Shown one piece after another: positions 1 through 6,933 of a DNA stretch of 33,459 nucleotides. Numbering within the stretch: position 1 is the first letter of the stretch; every line of letters starts with the position of its first letter. A model generated the notes under the pieces. It ran no database searches, had not been told where the DNA came from, and saw only the letters and a list, made by a program, of their open reading frames with translations. Origin of the DNA: an uncultured archaeon (lineage in GTDB: Archaea; Asgardarchaeota; Lokiarchaeia; Sigyniarchaeales; SOKP01); NCBI GenBank assembly GCA_964583985.1, contig CAZOYD010000040.1, forward strand, positions 1 to 33,459, read 5' to 3'. Made by a program: the position numbers and the translations under genes.

Positions 1-54
1 CCCCCGACCTCACGGTTATCAGCCGTGCGCTATACCAGGCTAAGCCACTCTCCC
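1..54 (-). tRNA. tRNA-Ile(GAT), 3' part cut off by window edge
   Basis: Reverse complement GGGAGAG-TG-GCTTAGCCTGGTATAGCG-CACGG-CT-GAT-AA-CCGTG-AGGTC-GGGGG: acceptor 5' strand, D arm, perfect anticodon stem with GAT, variable loop and start of the T stem. Confidence 0.93.
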
Positions 55-250
55 GGCTTTACAAATATTTTTTTTGTTTAAAATAGAAAATTATGCTAAT
101 TAAATATTAAAGCGTTAAAAAATTTTTTGAGAATCTCAGATTTCATCAATATTAATCTTTTAAAATATCCTATATTTTCTCCTTTCTCAGCATAAATTTA
201 ATTAATTTAATAAAAAAAAAAATAAAAGGAAAAGTTCATAACTTAGCAAT

Positions 251-370
251 TTAGGGGCCACCTTGACCATCAGCAGGATACCATGATGCTAAACTTACTC
301 GGACCACATTTAAAAAAGCAAGTATGCTAATAATAGAAGTGAGTATCATAAAACGCTTTTGTATATTCAT
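251..370 (-). CDS. Small secreted peptide precursor, copy 1 (39 aa): MNIQKRFMILTSIISILAFLNVVRVSLA|SWYPADGQGGP
   Basis: Hand translation, ATG(370) to TAA(251); GGAGG SD upstream; basic n-region, hydrophobic h-region, S-L-A cleavage motif; C-terminal GQGGP shared with the paralogues. Confidence 0.85.
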   Translation of the reverse strand: MNIQKRFMILTSIISILAFLNVVRVSLASWYPADGQGGP

Positions 371-419
371 TTTATTTATCCTCCAATCCATAGAATGGTA
401 TCATTATTAATCACTGGAA

Positions 420-427
420 TATTTAAA
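420..427 (-). promoter_or_regulatory. TATA box (TTTAAATA on minus strand) for peptide copy 1
   Basis: The same octamer lies 45-50 nt upstream of the ATG of all four intact copies (420-427, 852-859, 1112-1119, 1545-1552). Confidence 0.65.
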
Positions 428-479
428 GTCCTAAAAATTGAAATAATTATAAATACCGTTGAATTAAATTATAAGAATA

Positions 480-637
480 ATGCCCAACTTTCCTAATCTT
501 AACATCATCGAAGAAATTTCTAAAGCTTTTGACAGGATATAATTTAACAGCTGAGGTTTTTGAGAATCTTCTGAAAATCAAAAATTAGGAAAAAAATTGA
601 GATTATTACTCATCACAAAAATTACAATCTTCTTTAA
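480..637 (+). pseudogene. Decayed 5' remnant of a paralogue of the 1181-aa protein (MPNFPNLNIIEEISKAFDRI*, then frameshifted KIEIITHHKNYNLL*)
   Basis: ATG at 480 encodes MPNFP, identical to the first five residues of 1609..5154 (MPNFPDINKI...KIDFIIVEEDSTNL). The upstream intergenic DNA is also homologous. Stop at 540-542. The extension to ~637 is less certain. Confidence 0.7.
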
Positions 638-680
638 AATAAAAAGAAATAAAATAATTTATTAATCTCTATTCTACTAA

Positions 681-806
681 TTAAGGTCCACCGTGACCGC
701 CTGGAAAATTCTCGGCAAGTCCTATTGATGCACCCTGCAAAGTAGAAAGAAAGACGATTAATGACGTAAAAATTGTTAAAATTTTATATCCAAATCTCAT
801 TTTCAT
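681..806 (-). CDS. Small secreted peptide precursor, copy 2 (41 aa): MKMRFGYKILTIFTSLIVFLSTLQGASIGLA|ENFPGGHGGP
   Basis: Hand translation; GGAGGAGAG directly upstream of the ATG; signal-peptide layout with G-L-A; C-terminal GHGGP. Confidence 0.85.
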   Translation of the reverse strand: MKMRFGYKILTIFTSLIVFLSTLQGASIGLAENFPGGHGGP

Positions 807-851
807 CTCTCCTCCAAGATGGAGTAAAGTAAAAATGAGTTATACTCAAAG

Positions 852-859
852 TATTTAAA
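852..859 (-). promoter_or_regulatory. TATA box (TTTAAATA) for peptide copy 2
   Basis: Position conserved relative to the ATG (46 nt). Confidence 0.6.
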
Positions 860-950
860 CCAATAATAATGATAAAAAAAAGTAAAAAAAACCTAAAAAG
901 ATATTCATTGAAAAACGGGATATTTTTGCTAGTTGATGATTAATGGGAGA

Positions 951-1067
951 TTAGGGACCACCCTGGCCACCGGGCCACCATCCGTATGCTACAGAGAGCA
1001 TGAAAAAGGAGAAAGTTATTATCAATACTAGCATCATCGTGAAGCAAAATTTTTTAATCACTCGCAT
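951..1067 (-). CDS. Small secreted peptide precursor, copy 3 (38 aa): MRVIKKFCFTMMLVLIITFSFFMLSVA|YGWWPGGQGGP
   Basis: C-terminal part of ORF-track 951..1199. The likely start is ATG 1067, preceded by AAGGTGG. Hydrophobic h-region; S-V-A or A-Y-G cleavage site; GQGGP end. Confidence 0.85.
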   Translation of the reverse strand: MRVIKKFCFTMMLVLIITFSFFMLSVAYGWWPGGQGGP

Positions 1068-1111
1068 CCACCTTTTTATTATTTTTAGGAGATTCTTTAT
1101 GAATAGAGGAT

Positions 1112-1119
1112 TATTTAAA
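1112..1119 (-). promoter_or_regulatory. TATA box (TTTAAATA) for peptide copy 3
   Basis: Position conserved relative to the ATG (45 nt). Confidence 0.6.
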
Positions 1120-1163
1120 TTACTCTTTTTTGTAAAAAAAACTCTTAAACTTAATCCTTTTAA

Positions 1164-1284
1164 TTGAGACCTACCGTGACCATCTGGAAAATTCGGCAAA
1201 TTCTATCTACGTAACTTGCAAAATAGAATGAAATCCGATTAAAGACATAAAAATTGTTAAAATTTTAACGAGAGTACAATTCAG
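1164..1284 (-). pseudogene. Pseudogenised peptide precursor, copy 4 (paralogue of copy 2)
   Basis: KILTIFMSLIGFHSILQVT*IEFA/NFPDGHGRSQ aligns with copy 2 KILTIFTSLIVFLSTLQGASIGLAENFPGGHGGP*. It has an internal TAG, a 2-nt deletion (GAGAAT to GAAT), TAA changed to CAA, and no ATG. Confidence 0.8.
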
Positions 1285-1378
1285 CCAAAGTTGTTGATGG
1301 AATGGGCATACAATCAATTTATAAAAATATAAAATAAAAGATAAAAAAAAATATTTTAAGCTAATTAATATAATTAAC

Positions 1379-1495
1379 TTAAGGACCACCTTGACCAATT
1401 GCCGGAGCCCAATCTGCCATAACTGCAGAACTTGCTAGCAATATTGATAGTGTTGTAACTATCATAGTCAATAATATGAGAATTTTAACCTTCAT
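1379..1495 (-). CDS. Small secreted peptide precursor, copy 5 (38 aa): MKVKILILLTMIVTTLSILLASSAVMA|DWAPAIGQGGP
   Basis: Hand translation, ATG(1495) to TAA(1379); clear Sec signal peptide with V-M-A; GQGGP end; divergent from the 1181-aa gene. Confidence 0.87.
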   Translation of the reverse strand: MKVKILILLTMIVTTLSILLASSAVMADWAPAIGQGGP

Positions 1496-1608
1496 TTTAC
1501 CTATTCCCTGGTTTATAAGTGTTCAGTATAATTCTAAATAGAGATATTTAAATTCCTATAAATTTGGAATAAAAGATTTATATTCAATTAAACAAAAATA
1601 GTATTGAT
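1496..1608. promoter_or_regulatory. Divergent promoter region between peptide copy 5 and the large regulator-like gene
   Basis: TTTAAATA (minus strand, 1545-1552). The block ATATTTAAATTCCTATAAATTTGGAATAA (1544-1572) resembles ATATTTAAAGTCCTAAAAATTGAAATAA (419-446). Confidence 0.6.
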
Positions 1609-4600
1609 ATGCCCAATTTTCCGGATATAAATAAGATTCACGGATTAATTGAAGATTTAGAAAAAATAAATTTGATTTCAAACGATTTGATTAGCCAATT
1701 TTATCTTTATTTAGGAGTTAAACCTCTGATTGATAAAATTGATTTTATAATTGTTGAGGAGGATAGTACTAATTTAAATTTCATCAATCTCGGCATATCA
1801 GTAGAGAATTATGATGATAATAATAATAGTGTATTGATTAAAATCTATAAAAATTTTACAAAATTTTTACCATTTATAGTTATAAGGGAAGTACTTAGAT
1901 GTTTCATAAATGAGGATTTTAGAAATAATAATTCATTAAATCTCATTATAAATCAAATTACAATTACATTCTTATCAAATCATAATCTTGTAAAAGAATG
2001 GAGATCTGTTATATTAGAAAGTATCCCTCAAAAAAAATTGGAACTTATTAATGAATTTAATAGATTAGAGTACTTGTATAGCAATATAAACCTCATAAAT
2101 GATCCTAATCCCACTCAATTCTTTTTTCAATATCTACATAAACATAAAAATTTGATTAACCAAGATGTTAAATCATTTAGTTTTATCTTTTTTAAAGATT
2201 TCAAAGAAAGTTTTTCAGAATCAACGTTTAATAATGAATTGGTAGAAACATTAAGAATTATAATAATTATTTTTTTAAGAGTTAAGAAACATCACGATTA
2301 TCTTCAATATAAAAATTTTTTTTTAGAGTTTAAGACTAAAAAAATCATTGAAACTGATCTAAGTCTTAGAAAATTCACACAAAATATGGATTGGATAAAA
2401 AATCATAGTTATATAACCCTTTCTTATCAAATTAATTGGCCTGCTCTTAATATCGCTGTTATAATTTTATATATAGAATTTAATCCTTTATTAAATAAAC
2501 TGAAACTACTTAAAATTCTTAAAGATGTTCCCTTTTTTATATCTCCTAAAATTTCAGTTATAAGTAATTCTGTTGATATAAGCGGTTATGTAGTAATTCC
2601 AAAGATTTATTTAGATGATTTTATTAATTTTCTAAATTCTTTAAAAGAAAACAATTACATTAGTAGCTTTAAAGTTTTATTAAGGCTTTCGCAAGACCAT
2701 TGTGTTAATTTGAATTACTTTAAAGAAGAATTTGGGAATAGAGGACTTATCAACTATAAACACTATAAATACCAAAAAAAAAATGAAATTGTAATACATC
2801 TTGAATGGAATGAGAAATATAAAAACCAAGATTTATCCCTGCTTGAATTTTTAATTCTTAACCGAGTTAGGATGTTTCTATTTAGTGGCTTAGGTTTTGA
2901 AAGAAGGGTTGATAATCTTAAAATTATAAAATCTGATATATTTAACGAAATTATAAAACAAAAAACTTTTATTAACAAATTAAAAGAAAATTTAAAAAAT
3001 ATTTACAAATCAGATAGTTTAAAGATTTTTGTCCTCCAAAAATTATATCAGGATCAGGATCTTGGATTCTTTTATGCAAAAAAGAAAATTCATAATTATT
3101 TAGACTTAATAAACAAGCTAGAGCCTCTGATTGAAGAAAATAGAATTGAAAATATCAATGACCTACAAAAATTTTTATCTCGTAATATTATCTCCTCATT
3201 AATTGAGGATAATCTTGTTATAGCTAAAACTAATATCCAAGATTATGTAATTAAAGAATTCTTCAGCGTGTACTTTGATTCAAAAAGAGAATTCTATCAA
3301 AAAGTTGCAAACTACAAAATTTATAATGAATTATTGGAGTTATCTTCTTTTTTGAAGATTTTTAGTCTAAATAATATAATTAAAATTGTTAATGATGAGA
3401 AATTGATTAACATTTTATTTCAGAATAAAGACAAAAAACTAAATGAAATCTATGAACAATATCAAGTTCAAGATTTAAATTCAGAGATGCTTGATAAAAT
3501 CTTAGCTGGTTTTATAGATTCAACGCCTCCTGTATTAACACCTCTTCTTATCAATACTATTATAACTAAAAAATTTGAAAAAGATTATTTTCAGTTAGTA
3601 TTATCAGATTCAGTCGATATACCGAAAAAATTGCAAAATCTTAGAAATTCCTTTCCAAGAACTCTAATAAACTATAATCAAAATTTGATTTCTTCTGAAA
3701 ATCTCTATAGTATAGAAATTTCAATGCCTTCATTAGACATAAAAGAGAAACACTTGTTTATTTCAATTATTTACAATATCTTTAAAAATAGTATAATTTA
3801 TATAAAAAATTATTTATGGAGTGGATTTATACTTGAATTTTTACTTAGAGATTTTTATGATTTTGAAGAAAAAAAGTTTTTTTACACAAAAGACCTATAT
3901 AAAGGATATTTAAAATTTGTATATAATCATTTTAAGAATAAATTAGGGGTGTCAAGAACTAAAAAGTTTAAGAATCAAAAGATTTTATGGACATGTGAAG
4001 ATAATTTTTTCGAGCTTGTAAAAATAGTAGGTAATAGAATAGCAAGAGAAAATAACGTCTATGATTCTTTTATATTGGAACAATTAAAATTCTTATTTTT
4101 AAATATTGAAAGTTTAATATGTATAACAGAAGAGTTTAAAGAAAAAAAGATAGAAATTTTTTTTCAGAATCATATAAAGGCCATTAAATTCATTCCTGTA
4201 TTCAAACGCTTTAATTTAAGTAGATTTATAACTTATTTCTATTCTAGTGATTTAAATCAGATCAATTTTAAATCCTTACTAGGAACTAACTTCTTAAAAA
4301 TAGAATATCCTGCATGCATCGATGATTCCATTCCATTCTTAGTAGACCATATTATTTCCTCCAATCAATTTAATAATTCGATATTAGATAATGTTTTAGC
4401 ACCAGAAAATAAAATTCGCGAGTATTGTGGATTTGTTGTAAAAAAGACTCATATTTTGTTTCATTTTGAAATGAATTTTACTCCGGAGGGTTGGGATTAC
4501 GATAGCGTAATATTTAAAGAGCACCTTGAAAACGTGCTTTTCAATAAAGAGTATCAGTTTAAAATTCCAAATTTAAAATCTTTCCAGTTTTCTGACAATG

Positions 4601-5154
4601 ATGAATTACCTCAATACGATCTTAATTCTCCAGAATTTCAAGATCTTTGCGAGATTTACAACTATCATTCCATCGATATCAAATCCTATATTGGAACTAA
4701 AAAGATTAAAACAGTAGAACGAATCCAAACCTTACTGAAGAAAGGATTAATATTCCCATACATAATCTTAAAGAATTTGGGATTCCAAGAAAGCCTTTAT
4801 CTCATCATCCCTGATCTAAATCAAGATTCCGTGAATACTCTCATTAAAATATTTGGATGGTTTAACTATGGATTTATCCATGAAATTGAAGGGAAGTATT
4901 TCATTTACGGATTTGATGAACCCGTAGAGTTCACTCATGGGTTAATGATGAAAATCTATTTTCCAAAGTGCGAATTGAGTGAATTCAAGCAACTATTTGA
5001 CATAGTGTTTGAATATTTGCAAGTTAAGCATTATCTCATTTTGAAGGATTTTGTAAATGGTGAAACGCTCGTTAAAAACATACATGAGGATCCTGATTTT
5101 TTTAAAACACATCATCCTTTACGAAATATTATAAATGATCATAAAGATGTTTAA
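1609..5154 (+). CDS. Large soluble hypothetical protein (1181 aa); putative transcription regulator with a degenerate zincin-like N-terminus and repeated Lrp/AsnC-like modules
   Basis: Long ORF with no obvious TM segment or signal peptide. FLPFIVIREVLRCF (RExxR where zincins have HExxH). Segments such as VERIQTLLKKGLIFPYIILKNLGFQESLYLIIP and ITLSYQINWPALNIAVIILYIEF resemble the Lrp/AsnC HTH-wing-to-RAM junction. Domain calls are by eye. Confidence 0.6.
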   Translation: MPNFPDINKIHGLIEDLEKINLISNDLISQFYLYLGVKPLIDKIDFIIVEEDSTNLNFINLGISVENYDDNNNSVLIKIYKNFTKFLPFIVIREVLRCFINEDFRNNNSLNLIINQITITFLSNHNLVKEWRSVILESIPQKKLELINEFNRLEYLYSNINLINDPNPTQFFFQYLHKHKNLINQDVKSFSFIFFKDFKESFSESTFNNELVETLRIIIIIFLRVKKHHDYLQYKNFFLEFKTKKIIETDLSLRKFTQNMDWIKNHSYITLSYQINWPALNIAVIILYIEFNPLLNKLKLLKILKDVPFFISPKISVISNSVDISGYVVIPKIYLDDFINFLNSLKENNYISSFKVLLRLSQDHCVNLNYFKEEFGNRGLINYKHYKYQKKNEIVIHLEWNEKYKNQDLSLLEFLILNRVRMFLFSGLGFERRVDNLKIIKSDIFNEIIKQKTFINKLKENLKNIYKSDSLKIFVLQKLYQDQDLGFFYAKKKIHNYLDLINKLEPLIEENRIENINDLQKFLSRNIISSLIEDNLVIAKTNIQDYVIKEFFSVYFDSKREFYQKVANYKIYNELLELSSFLKIFSLNNIIKIVNDEKLINILFQNKDKKLNEIYEQYQVQDLNSEMLDKILAGFIDSTPPVLTPLLINTIITKKFEKDYFQLVLSDSVDIPKKLQNLRNSFPRTLINYNQNLISSENLYSIEISMPSLDIKEKHLFISIIYNIFKNSIIYIKNYLWSGFILEFLLRDFYDFEEKKFFYTKDLYKGYLKFVYNHFKNKLGVSRTKKFKNQKILWTCEDNFFELVKIVGNRIARENNVYDSFILEQLKFLFLNIESLICITEEFKEKKIEIFFQNHIKAIKFIPVFKRFNLSRFITYFYSSDLNQINFKSLLGTNFLKIEYPACIDDSIPFLVDHIISSNQFNNSILDNVLAPENKIREYCGFVVKKTHILFHFEMNFTPEGWDYDSVIFKEHLENVLFNKEYQFKIPNLKSFQFSDNDELPQYDLNSPEFQDLCEIYNYHSIDIKSYIGTKKIKTVERIQTLLKKGLIFPYIILKNLGFQESLYLIIPDLNQDSVNTLIKIFGWFNYGFIHEIEGKYFIYGFDEPVEFTHGLMMKIYFPKCELSEFKQLFDIVFEYLQVKHYLILKDFVNGETLVKNIHEDPDFFKTHHPLRNIINDHKDV

Positions 5155-5500
5155 ATTAGGTTTTGGACAAAAATAATAAGTCAAGAATAAAAATCTCATC
5201 GGATATCATCATTGTAGTGAATTTTTGAAAGTTCTAATTCAAATATTAGTAGAGATCTAAATCTTTTATTTAATCTCTAGCAAATTTCCATCAGTTCCTG
5301 ATTTCCTCATTTCTCCGGGAGAAAATTTTTTGAGGGTGTATCACGGTTTCAACTTTCATATTTAAAGGGTTATTTTTTCTGAAAAAATCAGGTCACGATC
5401 GGTGTTTTTGGGAGCTCAACTCTGTAATTTTAAAACTATCAAAAACTTTATAAATGACACTCTGTCACTTATTAGAATTATGACAATAGAGGTGTTTATT

Positions 5501-5701
5501 TTGGAAGATAAAAATTATCGATGTCCGAGATGTCGGAGTAGGGAGAAAATTATTGATCATGAGAATTCAATATGGTGCATGAGTTGTGATCTGATATTTG
5601 ATAAGGTTGATTTAGAGATGTTTGATGAGGCGGATATTCTAGCGAGATCAGAAAAACAGGGCATAATAGGGGTTTTGCTTGGTGAGTTTCTAAAGGATTA
5701 A
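5501..5701 (+). CDS. Small zinc-ribbon protein (CPRC...CMSC), ~66 aa
   Basis: Two CxxC motifs. GAGGTG SD at 5489-5494 favours the TTG start at 5501 (alternative ATG 5480) over the ORF-track start at 5402. Confidence 0.7.
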   Translation: MEDKNYRCPRCRSREKIIDHENSIWCMSCDLIFDKVDLEMFDEADILARSEKQGIIGVLLGEFLKD

Positions 5702-5702
5702 C

Positions 5703-5733
5703 GTACTCAAGTGAGTACTGCTCTTTATTTTTT
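5703..5733 (+). terminator. Hairpin GTACTC-AAGT-GAGTAC followed by a T-rich tract
   Basis: Inverted repeat directly after the zinc-ribbon stop codon, then TCTTTATTTTTT. Confidence 0.4.
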
Positions 5734-5750
5734 CCCTAATTTTATGATTT

Positions 5751-5794
5751 TTAGAAGATCCTTAGAACATTCTTAGAAAAACCTAAGAAAAAAC
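5751..5794. repeat. Four 11-bp-phased direct repeats with core T[T/A]AGAA
   Basis: TTAGAA at 5751, 5762 and 5773; TAAGAA at 5784. Confidence 0.5.
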
Positions 5795-5925
5795 AGTTGT
5801 ATATATAGTTAGTTTTACTGATCATTTTGCTTTTTCTAGTCAAAAAGTTTAAAATTTGATAATTTAATTGAATGGTAAGAAGTAATTATTATCACAATAT
5901 TTGTATTTTACAAAGGTGTTCATAA

Positions 5926-6933
5926 ATCCCAGAATCAGAGGAATCTAAATCCAATTACGATTTTAACGATTGGAACGTTAAACAACTGAGAGAATTTGCC
6001 AGTAAGAATAACATAAAGGTACCCACGAAATCAAAGAAGGCAGAATTAATAAATATCTTAGAGCCTATAGTCAATCATCCTGAGTTTATTGACAGAACTC
6101 ACGATGTGATTCCTGATGAAGAATTGGAAGAAGAACTGGTTGCTGGTGAGGAATATGACCCTGCATTGTCTCAAAAGGATAAATTAGAATTAAAATTTTG
6201 GCAAAAACCTCCTTATTCAAGTCTTTTAGATCCTGAACTGGCGAAAGACTCTAACGTTGCGTTCTATGATTTATCATCGTTAGTAGATAAGTTTTTCAGT
6301 AACATGTTGTCAGAAGATCTGATTAATTACAAGATTTCTGGGATTGCACTAAAAACTTCGGCTCTTTTGCATCATTATAAAATATCAAGCATAATTAGAG
6401 AGGAAGAGGATATCCAAAAGAAAGAAGAACTCGAATTATTCCGGGAAAGGCACGGAAGATCCATCCCTAAGACATTATCCCAGCCCATTCAACCTAAAAT
6501 GTTGATTTCTACAAAAGAGGAACTATTTGATGCAATGAGATCAGCCATCATCGAGACCATGCAAAATAAAGAGAAATTAAAGAGACGTCGCATTCGCCGT
6601 GAAGAATTAAAACAGAACAAGATAATGGTACGATCAAAGGCTCAATTACCCAAGGAACTCTTGAGACATATAAGTGGGAGGGAACAATCCGTCGAAGAAT
6701 TACATGAATCGTGGTTTAATAGAATAAAAGCAAGAGTAGAATTTGATAATAAGGAAACATCTTTTTATGAGATTGCGAAGATTATTGTTGATGAGGAAAA
6801 AAGTGAGATTGGACGGAAATTTGCATTTGTTAGACTTTTTTTGGCATTAATGTTTCTTTCAACAGGAAATAAATTATACTTATCCCAAGATGAAGATTTT
6901 AAAGATTTTGCCATAGATCTCAAGAAAAGATAA
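5926..6933 (+). CDS. scpA: Segregation and condensation protein A (kleisin) with an N-terminal HeH/Rho-N-like module; probable ATC start
   Basis: C-terminal FVRLFLALMFLSTGNKLYLSQDEDFKDFAI kleisin winged helix; N-terminal kleisin helices (YDLSSLVDKF...INYKISGIAL); adjacent to scpB. The frame is open from ATC 5926 (after AAGGTG); the ORF track starts at 6106. Confidence 0.8.
   Translation: MPESEESKSNYDFNDWNVKQLREFASKNNIKVPTKSKKAELINILEPIVNHPEFIDRTHDVIPDEELEEELVAGEEYDPALSQKDKLELKFWQKPPYSSLLDPELAKDSNVAFYDLSSLVDKFFSNMLSEDLINYKISGIALKTSALLHHYKISSIIREEEDIQKKEELELFRERHGRSIPKTLSQPIQPKMLISTKEELFDAMRSAIIETMQNKEKLKRRRIRREELKQNKIMVRSKAQLPKELLRHISGREQSVEELHESWFNRIKARVEFDNKETSFYEIAKIIVDEEKSEIGRKFAFVRLFLALMFLSTGNKLYLSQDEDFKDFAIDLKKR

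Follow-up and report, generated by a model that had tools for sequence, protein, structure and literature searches.

The window analysed here, a 33,459-nucleotide stretch of DNA from an uncultured archaeon of the Lokiarchaeia, carries near its first end four short genes that have no annotation, a much larger gene on the opposite strand, and a small gene for a zinc-ribbon protein (Table 1). An earlier note, made from the letters of the window, had proposed the four minus-strand reading frames together with one pseudogene. All four frames are present, with the tails it described. Gene 4 lies head-to-head with the large gene across a spacer of 113 nt. The pseudogene is real as well: it copies gene 2 and its 3' flank at 74-81% nucleotide identity, its ribosome site, ATG and stop codon are gone, and it has an in-frame TAG and a 2-nt deletion. 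A fifth intact member, more divergent and absent from the earlier note, is found on contig C102 of the same genome (3965-4084), directly downstream of a paralogue of the large gene.

Table 1. Features of the peptide locus, in window coordinates
Feature	Position	Strand	Remarks
Truncated tRNA, outer boundary of the variable island	1..54	-	Rfam tRNA 33.2 bits, cut at 3' end
Peptide gene 1, 39 aa + stop	251..370	-	profile E 4.6e-19
TTTAAATA box, archaeal TATA-like promoter element, 50-57 nt upstream of gene 1	420..427	-	repeats D7/D9/D11
Decayed remnant of the 5' end of a second large-protein gene, facing gene 1 head-to-head	480..611	+	
Peptide gene 2, 41 aa + stop	681..806	-	sORF scan, profile search
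TTTAAATA box, 46-53 nt upstream of gene 2	852..859	-	
Peptide gene 3, 38 aa + stop	951..1067	-	sORF scan, profile search
TTTAAATA box, 45-52 nt upstream of gene 3	1112..1119	-	
Pseudogene, decayed gene 2 duplicate with 3' flank	1133..1269	-	repeats D1, D3; profile E 2.5e-4
Peptide gene 4, 38 aa + stop	1379..1495	-	sORF scan, profile search, selection
TTTAAATA box, 50-57 nt upstream of gene 4, within the shared divergent promoter region	1545..1552	-	
Large partner protein, 1,181 aa	1609..5154	+	without membrane segment
Small zinc-ribbon protein, CPxC...CxxC, ~74 aa from likely Met	5477..5701	+	

The simplest objection is that an AT-rich intergenic region has thrown up chance reading frames or non-coding repeats. 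Only the small size of the frames and their lack of annotation invite this idea, and we consider it refuted. A six-frame scan of the 3,795,352-base genome finds only 16 frames ending in GGP-stop; those ending in G-[QH]-G-G-P-stop number four, all within 251-1495, against a chance expectation of about 0.005. The last five codons do use differing synonymous choices among the four genes when matched 18-mers are compared. Selection on the peptide, which had been argued from this, also holds: synonymous sites are saturated and the peptide sequence is kept. Gene 1 and its orthologue in genome G023 give pS 0.86 and pN 0.17, and their tails differ at one of 11 positions. Gene 2 against the copies in G001 gives dN/dS of 0.37-0.40, and two paralogue pairs give 0.11-0.13. 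The counterpart of gene 3 in G022 has lost both Pro residues. The family supposed in the earlier note does extend beyond this locus, to 25 of the 134 genomes of the taxonomic family and at least five genera, with 51 distinct peptides. A profile search of 1.84 billion proteins returned 20 matches; 19 of them are 37-56 aa long, and all 19 share the build of the window peptides. Each of the four genes has a TTTAAATA box 45-57 nt upstream (4/4), a GGAGG-like ribosome site and a T-run, and the sole Rfam match in the window is the tRNA fragment. All of this argues against chance: the frames are unique in the genome and conserved across genera, they are under purifying selection, their promoter boxes are positioned, and no RNA family matches them. 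The micro-genes are real, selected, independent protein-coding units. Whatever their function, conserved genes of fewer than 45 codons are often uncalled or unnamed in these genomes.

The products had been described as a signal-peptide-like leader followed by a short C-terminal peptide, and this layout stands, with variable residues preceding a near-constant end. Behind a basic N-terminus come about 20 hydrophobic residues that form the core, then a conserved G-x-A site, and last a tail of 6-14 residues. Across the 51 distinct peptides the first nine residues have a mean net charge of +2.6 (minimum +1) and the median length of the uncharged run is 23 residues. With the -3/-1 site placed by a rule of our own, position -1 is Ala in 47 of the 51, and position -3 is Gly in 34 and Ala, Ser, Cys, Val or Thr in the others; the G-x-A column is also conserved in unbiased MAFFT alignments. 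This is the kind of site cut by signal peptidase I, and the precursors may be cut there. The tails are Gly/Pro-rich, acidic or neutral and Pro-ended; they contain no Lys or Arg, and no conserved Cys, Ser, Thr or other usual modification sites. The genome carries two S26 peptidase genes, which are permissive for export, and four SBP_bac_5 genes (Opp-type binding proteins), which are permissive for re-import.

Two parts of the earlier description have to be revised. The constant C-terminus is looser than G-[QH]-GGP; what is near-constant is G-x-P, with Gly three from the end in 50/51 peptides and Pro last in 50/51. The leaders are not poorly conserved across the family either, and in genus g22 the hydrophobic leader is the best-conserved part of the peptide. 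That would be unusual for a disposable signal peptide. Together with the long uncharged run it speaks for uncleaved single-pass membrane micro-proteins, N-terminus inside and 10-residue tail outside, which would modulate a membrane complex and would adjoin the large gene for reasons of co-regulation only. We think this improbable, since the (-3, -1) Gly/Ala/Ser...Ala site is kept in 47-51 of the 51 peptides at a fixed alignment column, and since selection keeps the short tail and its terminal Pro.

The large gene belongs to a family of non-membrane proteins of about 1,200 aa that is confined to the Lokiarchaeia. Searched whole and as six pieces, the protein has no match at E <0.01 in Pfam, NCBIfam, PADLOC or PDB sequences, and Pfam gives far-sub-threshold rows only on the pieces. 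The predicted structure (pLDDT 86.6) has a zincin-like domain at about 1-205, a first Lrp/AsnC-like module at about 206-400, a helical insert at about 401-620 and modules 2-4 at about 621-1150; each of the four modules is modelled as a winged helix plus a RAM domain (beta-alpha-beta-beta-alpha-beta). NirDL, a double Lrp-like protein, aligns onto modules 1 and 2 with Z 13.3 over 298 residues, and AsnC, LrpC and other Lrp chains align over their whole chains onto module 1 (Z 5.2-5.6, 138-148 residues). The Pfam models of the HTH_AsnC type and AsnC_trans_reg do not match single modules even at E 5, and there is a weak language-model lead to an HTH_AsnC cluster with a score of 0.80. Foldseek with the full and N-terminal models finds nothing significant except NirDL at E 1.2e-3; a block of RND-pump rows was set aside as due to generic ferredoxin-like repeats. 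We also rejected an SMC-type partner of the downstream ScpA/ScpB: the adjacency is found in the genus-g1 clade only, and the protein lacks a Walker motif and is modelled with another fold.

The N-terminal domain was also folded alone, with pLDDT 88.9. Nearly all of its top 50 VIA rows are zincins (Z <=8.2, 165-178 residues aligned), and its Atlas neighbours are M48, BSP and SprT-like clusters. In these 205 residues, which align with the catalytic domains of M1, M4, M36 and M48 peptidases, HExxH is replaced by R93-E94-x-x-[YF] (Arg 53/63, Glu 55/63, His 0/63). We read this confident model as a predicted zincin-like fold without the zinc-binding histidines. TAF2 of TFIID is an M1-aminopeptidase-like protein without activity, and it is in the list of structural matches of the domain (Z 5.9-6.4); the large protein also lacks the metal-binding histidines. 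It differs from the zincin pseudo-peptidases in keeping the motif Glu, preceded by Arg, and in being fused to modules of a DNA-binding type. A predicted domain architecture can thus be given to what is, family-wide, a 'hypothetical protein' of about 1,200 aa.

Short precursors beside a protein with a protease-like domain and winged-helix modules raise the idea of RiPP-like precursors, whose leader would be bound by the winged-helix elements and whose core would be modified or processed by the large protein and the zinc-ribbon protein. One orphan peptide copy does adjoin a weak radical-SAM match. We find this very improbable: neither the large protein nor the two peptides searched match anything in Pfam, NCBIfam or PADLOC, the zinc ligands are absent, the tails offer none of the usual modification sites, and the leader resembles a standard Sec signal.

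The peptide and large genes are linked. For about 26 of 32 strong peptide matches a large-protein gene is no more than about 1.5 kb away, and most copies have one inside 1 kb. The pairing is found in genera g1, g14, g22 and g23, on two metagenome contigs and at the second locus of the window genome. Among the best 30 large-gene loci, a peptide gene is present within 1.5 kb at 10, so the large protein does not generally need the peptide; the other 20 have none in that range by relaxed filters and a relaxed profile. Orphan peptide copies in unrelated surroundings number at least four: two in G003, one in G149 between SRP54 and aIF5A, and one on contig C276 of G122. The zinc-ribbon gene is a third, less regular neighbour of the cassette: in G001, G022, G023, G015, G126 and G122 its homologues adjoin the large gene or the peptide genes. 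The protein has weak, sub-threshold family matches only.

Orphan peptide genes, and a large gene that stands without peptide genes at two thirds of its loci, are what one expects if the link is regulatory only. The Lrp-like protein would then be a local metabolite-responsive switch of the peptide genes, and the peptides would act in some other way outside the cell and would not be its ligand. Divergent transcription from the target gene is typical of Lrp/AsnC regulators, and the large protein has a predicted Lrp-like fold. The peptides might, for example, condition surfaces, interact with metals or partner cells, or serve as a nutrient cue. We regard a purely regulatory link as rather unlikely. 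It leaves unexplained why a single hypervariable block, ending sharply inside a gene, takes in both the peptide array and at least the N-terminal two thirds of the regulator, and why a decayed cassette keeps its peptide paired with the matching allele of the large gene.

Both of these observations come from comparison with close relatives. Identity to them is 53-65% across the array and the first 2.6-3.2 kb of the large gene, counted from its 5' end, and about 87% at the gene's 3' end and in the flanks. Against G001 nucleotide identity is 0.53-0.65 up to about 4195 and 0.86-0.88 thereafter; against G022 the step falls at about 4500-4800. Protein identity is 80-98% for the neighbouring genes and 45-56% for the large protein. 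A single hypervariable segment, set in an otherwise conserved neighbourhood, contains both the peptide array and the part of the large gene for the N-terminal 860-1,000 residues, and the two diverge together. The contig end falls inside the tRNA at the outer boundary, which by synteny is probably tRNA-Ile GAU; G001 and G022 have an intact tRNA-Ile(GAT) beside the peptide array. The joint variability could stem from physical linkage in a recombining island beside a tRNA, and not from co-adaptation. The tRNA-flanked variable position also suggested a defence island, an idea left unsupported by PADLOC, which gave no match.

As for the decayed cassette, the stub between genes 1 and 2 matches the N-terminus of the G023 large protein (tblastn, E 4e-6, 43% over 44 aa, with stops) better than it matches the window's own large protein (E 0.007). 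It is what is left of a second cassette. Since gene 1 faces this G023-like stub and has a tail so close to that of G023, we count the pair as cassette inheritance.

We believe that these data are best read, tentatively and at a little less than even confidence, as a signalling cassette made of an exported peptide and a cytoplasmic regulator. Sec would export the precursors, and a cut after G-x-A would free 8-11-mers. These would accumulate outside and then re-enter the cell, where the large protein would bind them in its variable N-terminal part, the likeliest place being the groove of the dead peptidase. The conserved C-terminal Lrp-like module would then alter transcription, including that from the shared divergent promoter, and tandem copies with allelic replacement would yield strain-specific signal types, or pherotypes. 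There are arguments against signalling. With so much Gly the tails contain little information, and a permanent membrane helix could have an uncharged run like this one. Peptide binding by the zincin-like pseudo-enzyme or by the RAM domains is hypothetical. We also count against signalling both the orphan peptide copies and the large-gene loci without a peptide gene. The fuller claim is doubtful. It holds that this is the first peptide-based cell-cell signalling in an archaeon, for quorum sensing or kin recognition, in which re-imported G-x-P 8-11-mers are read by the dead zincin groove of a tetra-Lrp regulator, with pherotypes held in a mosaic hypervariable island.

Among the closest known likenesses are the RRNPP systems of Firmicutes and their phages (Rgg-SHP, PlcR-PapR, NprR-NprX, Rap-Phr and AimR-AimP). 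There too a precursor of about 40 aa has an N-terminal export segment and a C-terminal peptide of active size, the peptide gene adjoins the gene of a cytoplasmic regulator, often divergently, and there may be several peptide genes per locus. Arbitrium peptides also have constant C-terminal residues with variable residues before them. However, there is no kinship of sequence or fold. The candidate partner here is a zincin-like pseudo-peptidase joined to four Lrp/AsnC-like modules and has no detected TPR: Pfam finds none in it, and its structural matches are Lrp/NirDL and zincins, with the helical insert 401-620 covered only within the whole model. The host is archaeal, the tails are Gly/Pro-rich and end in Pro, and the system is known here from sequence and models. 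The island itself resembles agrBDCA of Staphylococcus and comQXPA of Bacillus, where a sharply bounded hypervariable segment covers the signal gene and the sensing part, and the output end and flanks are conserved. There the sensors are membrane histidine kinases and the peptides are modified, whereas the candidate sensor here is soluble and no modification enzyme is evident. With Lrp/AsnC proteins and NirDL/AhbAB, the Lrp-like siroheme decarboxylase, the large protein shares winged-helix plus RAM modules in its model, but it fuses four of them to a zincin-like head and a 200-residue helical insert, and has no Pfam match. The ligands known for that family are amino acids and not peptides.

A literature search found no published description of the peptide/large-protein system or of archaeal peptide pheromones, and to our knowledge no archaeal peptide pheromone system has been described. 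The known archaeal signals are compounds like acyl-homoserine lactones or diketopiperazines. If the signalling reading is true, peptide/regulator pairs and pherotype loci like those of Gram-positive bacteria would have evolved convergently from unrelated parts. Asgard archaea live in syntrophic consortia, and the Lokiarchaeia are the lineage closest to eukaryotes; the cassette would, if the reading is true, offer a first way to study how Asgard archaea behave socially.

Four minus-strand sORFs lie in 251-1495 exactly where the earlier note placed them, and judged from sequence they are protein-coding genes under selection that belong to a small and narrow family. A GGAGG- or GGTG-like site immediately precedes each of them, and a T-run follows. 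All four are also preceded by an exact TTTAAATA box, on the same strand as the gene and 45-57 nt from the ATG; this octamer is present at 15 sites in the 33 kb window, as expected by chance, with 4 of the 15 in the fixed pre-gene position. When the whole 3.8 Mb assembly (GC 31.7%) is translated in six frames, GGP-stop closes only 16 frames, and G-[QH]-G-G-P-stop closes these four sORFs alone. The kept C-terminus does use different synonymous codons, as seen between copies at the terminal codons. Purifying selection is seen in orthologous and paralogous pairs: gene 1 against its orthologue in the related genome G023 gives pS 0.86 (saturated) and pN 0.17, while dN/dS is 0.11 and 0.13 for two paralogue pairs and 0.37-0.67 for other pairs. 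Two recent tandem copies in G001 have three non-synonymous differences, two of them at variable tail positions. By pattern and profile searches, sORFs of this type occur in 25 of 134 genomes of the taxonomic family, and the convincing ones represent at least four to five genera. When 1.84 billion proteins were searched exhaustively with the profile, 20 matched; 19 are 37-56 aa long, and all 19 proved on retrieval to be built like the window peptides. The ten whose clusters were checked are unnamed or 'hypothetical', on few contigs each.

Coordinates of features in the window and on C102, another contig of the same genome (G000)
Feature	Position	Strand	Remarks
Truncated tRNA	1-54		RNA-family match
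Peptide gene 1	251-370	minus	intact sORF (genes 1-4: 38-41 codons)
Stub of second large gene	480-611		decayed; opposite gene 1; matches G023 allele
Peptide gene 2	681-806	minus	intact sORF
Peptide gene 3	951-1067	minus	intact sORF
Pseudogene	about 1133-1269	minus	decayed duplicate of gene 2 and its 3' flank
Peptide gene 4	1379-1495	minus	intact sORF
Large protein	1609-5154	plus	1,181 aa; head-to-head with gene 4, 113 nt between
Small zinc-ribbon gene	about 5477-5701		within 99-codon ORF 5402-5701
Large-protein paralogue	C102 (locus L104) 117-3731		27% identical
Divergent peptide gene	C102 3965-4084		ends G-M-P; about 230 nt past paralogue's stop

The single pseudogene that had been reported is real: its start region and stop are gone, and it has an in-frame TAG and a 2-nt deletion. 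Its tail (1182-1199, minus) reads L-P-N-F-P-D and the large protein starts M-P-N-F-P-D (1609-1626, plus); the stub at 480 likewise starts M-P-N-F-P. The likeness of pseudogene and large protein is probably chance because the pseudogene tail descends from that of gene 2. No RNA family besides the truncated tRNA matched in the peptide region, and ARAGORN found no tRNA across the entire window.

The build of the peptides, counted over 51 distinct family members, is on sequence grounds that of a standard signal peptidase I substrate, with cleavage predicted. Mean net charge is +2.6 over residues 1-9, followed by an uncharged stretch (median 23 residues) and a G-x-A alignment column with Ala at -1 in 47 and a small residue at -3 in all 51. 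The tail that follows has 6-14 residues, is rich in Gly (39%) and Pro (17%), lacks Lys and Arg, and often begins with Glu or an aromatic residue. The layout described in the earlier note, a signal peptide ending in small-x-Ala and then a short tail, thus holds as anatomy. Its constant G-[Q/H]-GGP end is true of the window copies and not of the family: Gly is third from last in 50/51 and Pro terminal in 50/51, therefore G-[QH]-GGP is the local form of a looser G-x-P. Nor are leaders of little identity a general rule, the hydrophobic segment being the best-conserved part in one genus. Products that remain uncleaved in the membrane are a reading we consider quite improbable. A RiPP-like reading lacks a supporting enzyme and is very improbable indeed.

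Of the 32 strong peptide matches, about 26 have a large-protein gene no more than about 1.5 kb away. The peptide gene is usually divergent from the 5' end of the large gene; in some cases it is co-directional and upstream of it, or a short way downstream. Two metagenome contigs show this linkage, as do G000 and the related genomes G001, G015, G022, G023, G049 (two loci), G083, G093, G099, G107, G110, G122, G126 and G149. The link is asymmetric: just 10 of the top 30 large-gene loci have a peptide gene close by, and at least four orphan peptide genes sit among housekeeping genes. One orphan (L044, G149:C269, 5210-5341) has SRP54 on one side and aIF5A on the other; it and the cassette-linked copy in G149 have identical mature tails, and the pair gives a dN/dS of 0.11. 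On C102 the peptide gene is followed by two small unknown ORFs, a 241-aa ORF and an S26 signal-peptidase gene (5639-6856, minus), which may be a coincidental neighbour or the processing enzyme. The 5402-5701 ORF of the window probably encodes a zinc-ribbon protein of about 74 aa from a Met near 5477, with CPxC...CxxC motifs, a conserved C-terminal helix and weak matches only, to the L37ae, Elf1 and Lar zinc-ribbon families. Its gene adjoins the large gene or peptide genes repeatedly, in seven genomes.

The large protein has no Pfam match and no membrane segment. Its family comprises at least 106 clusters, all of about 1,200 aa, and every cluster with a named source comes from Lokiarchaeia/Promethearchaeota MAGs. 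Members are encoded in 115 of the 133 genomes of the taxonomic family, at 1-4 paralogues per genome; a search of 19 genomes from the order's other families found none. AlphaFold models the protein with confidence (pLDDT 86.6, pTM 0.85), and the modelled secondary structure has four winged-helix plus beta-alpha-beta-beta-alpha-beta units. Residues 209-772 superpose on NirDL, a double Lrp-like protein (Z 13.3, 298 residues), module 1 on whole chains of AsnC, LrpC and other Lrp proteins (Z 5.2-5.6), and the last module matches ACT/RAM-type domains. Residues 1-205, folded alone (pLDDT 88.9), match almost purely zincin peptidases (M1, M4, M36, M3, M48, M9, selecase; Z up to 8.2), and the Atlas neighbours agree. 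These Z values are in the tool's middling range; the case is made by the homogeneity of the list and by alignments that span most of the domain. The helix equivalent to HExxH has a conserved R-E-x-x-[YF] instead, so a zinc site is not expected. The main rival to a signalling role is that the large protein does no more than control the peptide genes, a reading we regard as unlikely.

In the genus g1 clade the gene order is tRNA-Ile, peptides, large gene, zinc-ribbon gene, scpA, scpB. Protein identity between genomes is 80-98% in the flanks and 45-56% in the large protein. Compared with G001, nucleotide identity stays at 0.53-0.65 between 1496 and about 4195 and then rises to 0.86-0.88, a step that falls within the large gene near residue 863; in the comparison with G022 it falls at about 4500-4800. 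Accordingly, within the close clade the zincin-like head is most variable (34% identity) and the last Lrp-like module most conserved (76-81%). The G023 allele is a closer match to the stub (E 4e-6) than the resident large gene is, and the gene 1 tail differs from the G023 tail at only one of 11 positions, so peptide and large-gene head travel together as one unit. The G000 and G023 contigs both end at the island edge (inside tRNA-Ile and at position 1 of locus L040), which suggests assembly breaks from strain-level heterogeneity; such breaks would be expected where the populations sampled contain more than one allele.

The layout, a short hydrophobic precursor divergent from a regulator, is like that of RRNPP cassettes, especially Rgg-SHP, and the population-genetic behaviour is like that of pherotype loci. 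The mosaic resembles agrBDC and comQXP; in those loci it is established that the signal gene diverges jointly with the receptor's sensor part. However, no TPR domain was detected, there is no sequence homology and the receptor architecture is different, so the cassette belongs to neither the RRNPP nor the pherotype systems. We searched the literature and found no description of it. The best-supported reading, which we hold tentatively, is a signalling cassette of peptide and large protein. From export onward we infer the steps: the precursor would be exported by Sec and cut after G-x-A, 8-11-mers would build up outside the cell and be taken up through one of the genome's four Opp-type systems, and the peptide would bind the large protein in its variable N-terminal part, with transcriptional output via its conserved Lrp-like end.

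At L061 (G049:C28) a second, weak peptide-like sORF (E 3.4e-3) without the terminal G-x-P adjoins an intact one and is probably another decaying copy. In genus g22 most members (loci L051, L054, L055, L060, L086-L088 and L100) seem to start with TTG, one with CTG, with GGTG before the start; such peptide genes would escape standard ATG-based sORF calling.
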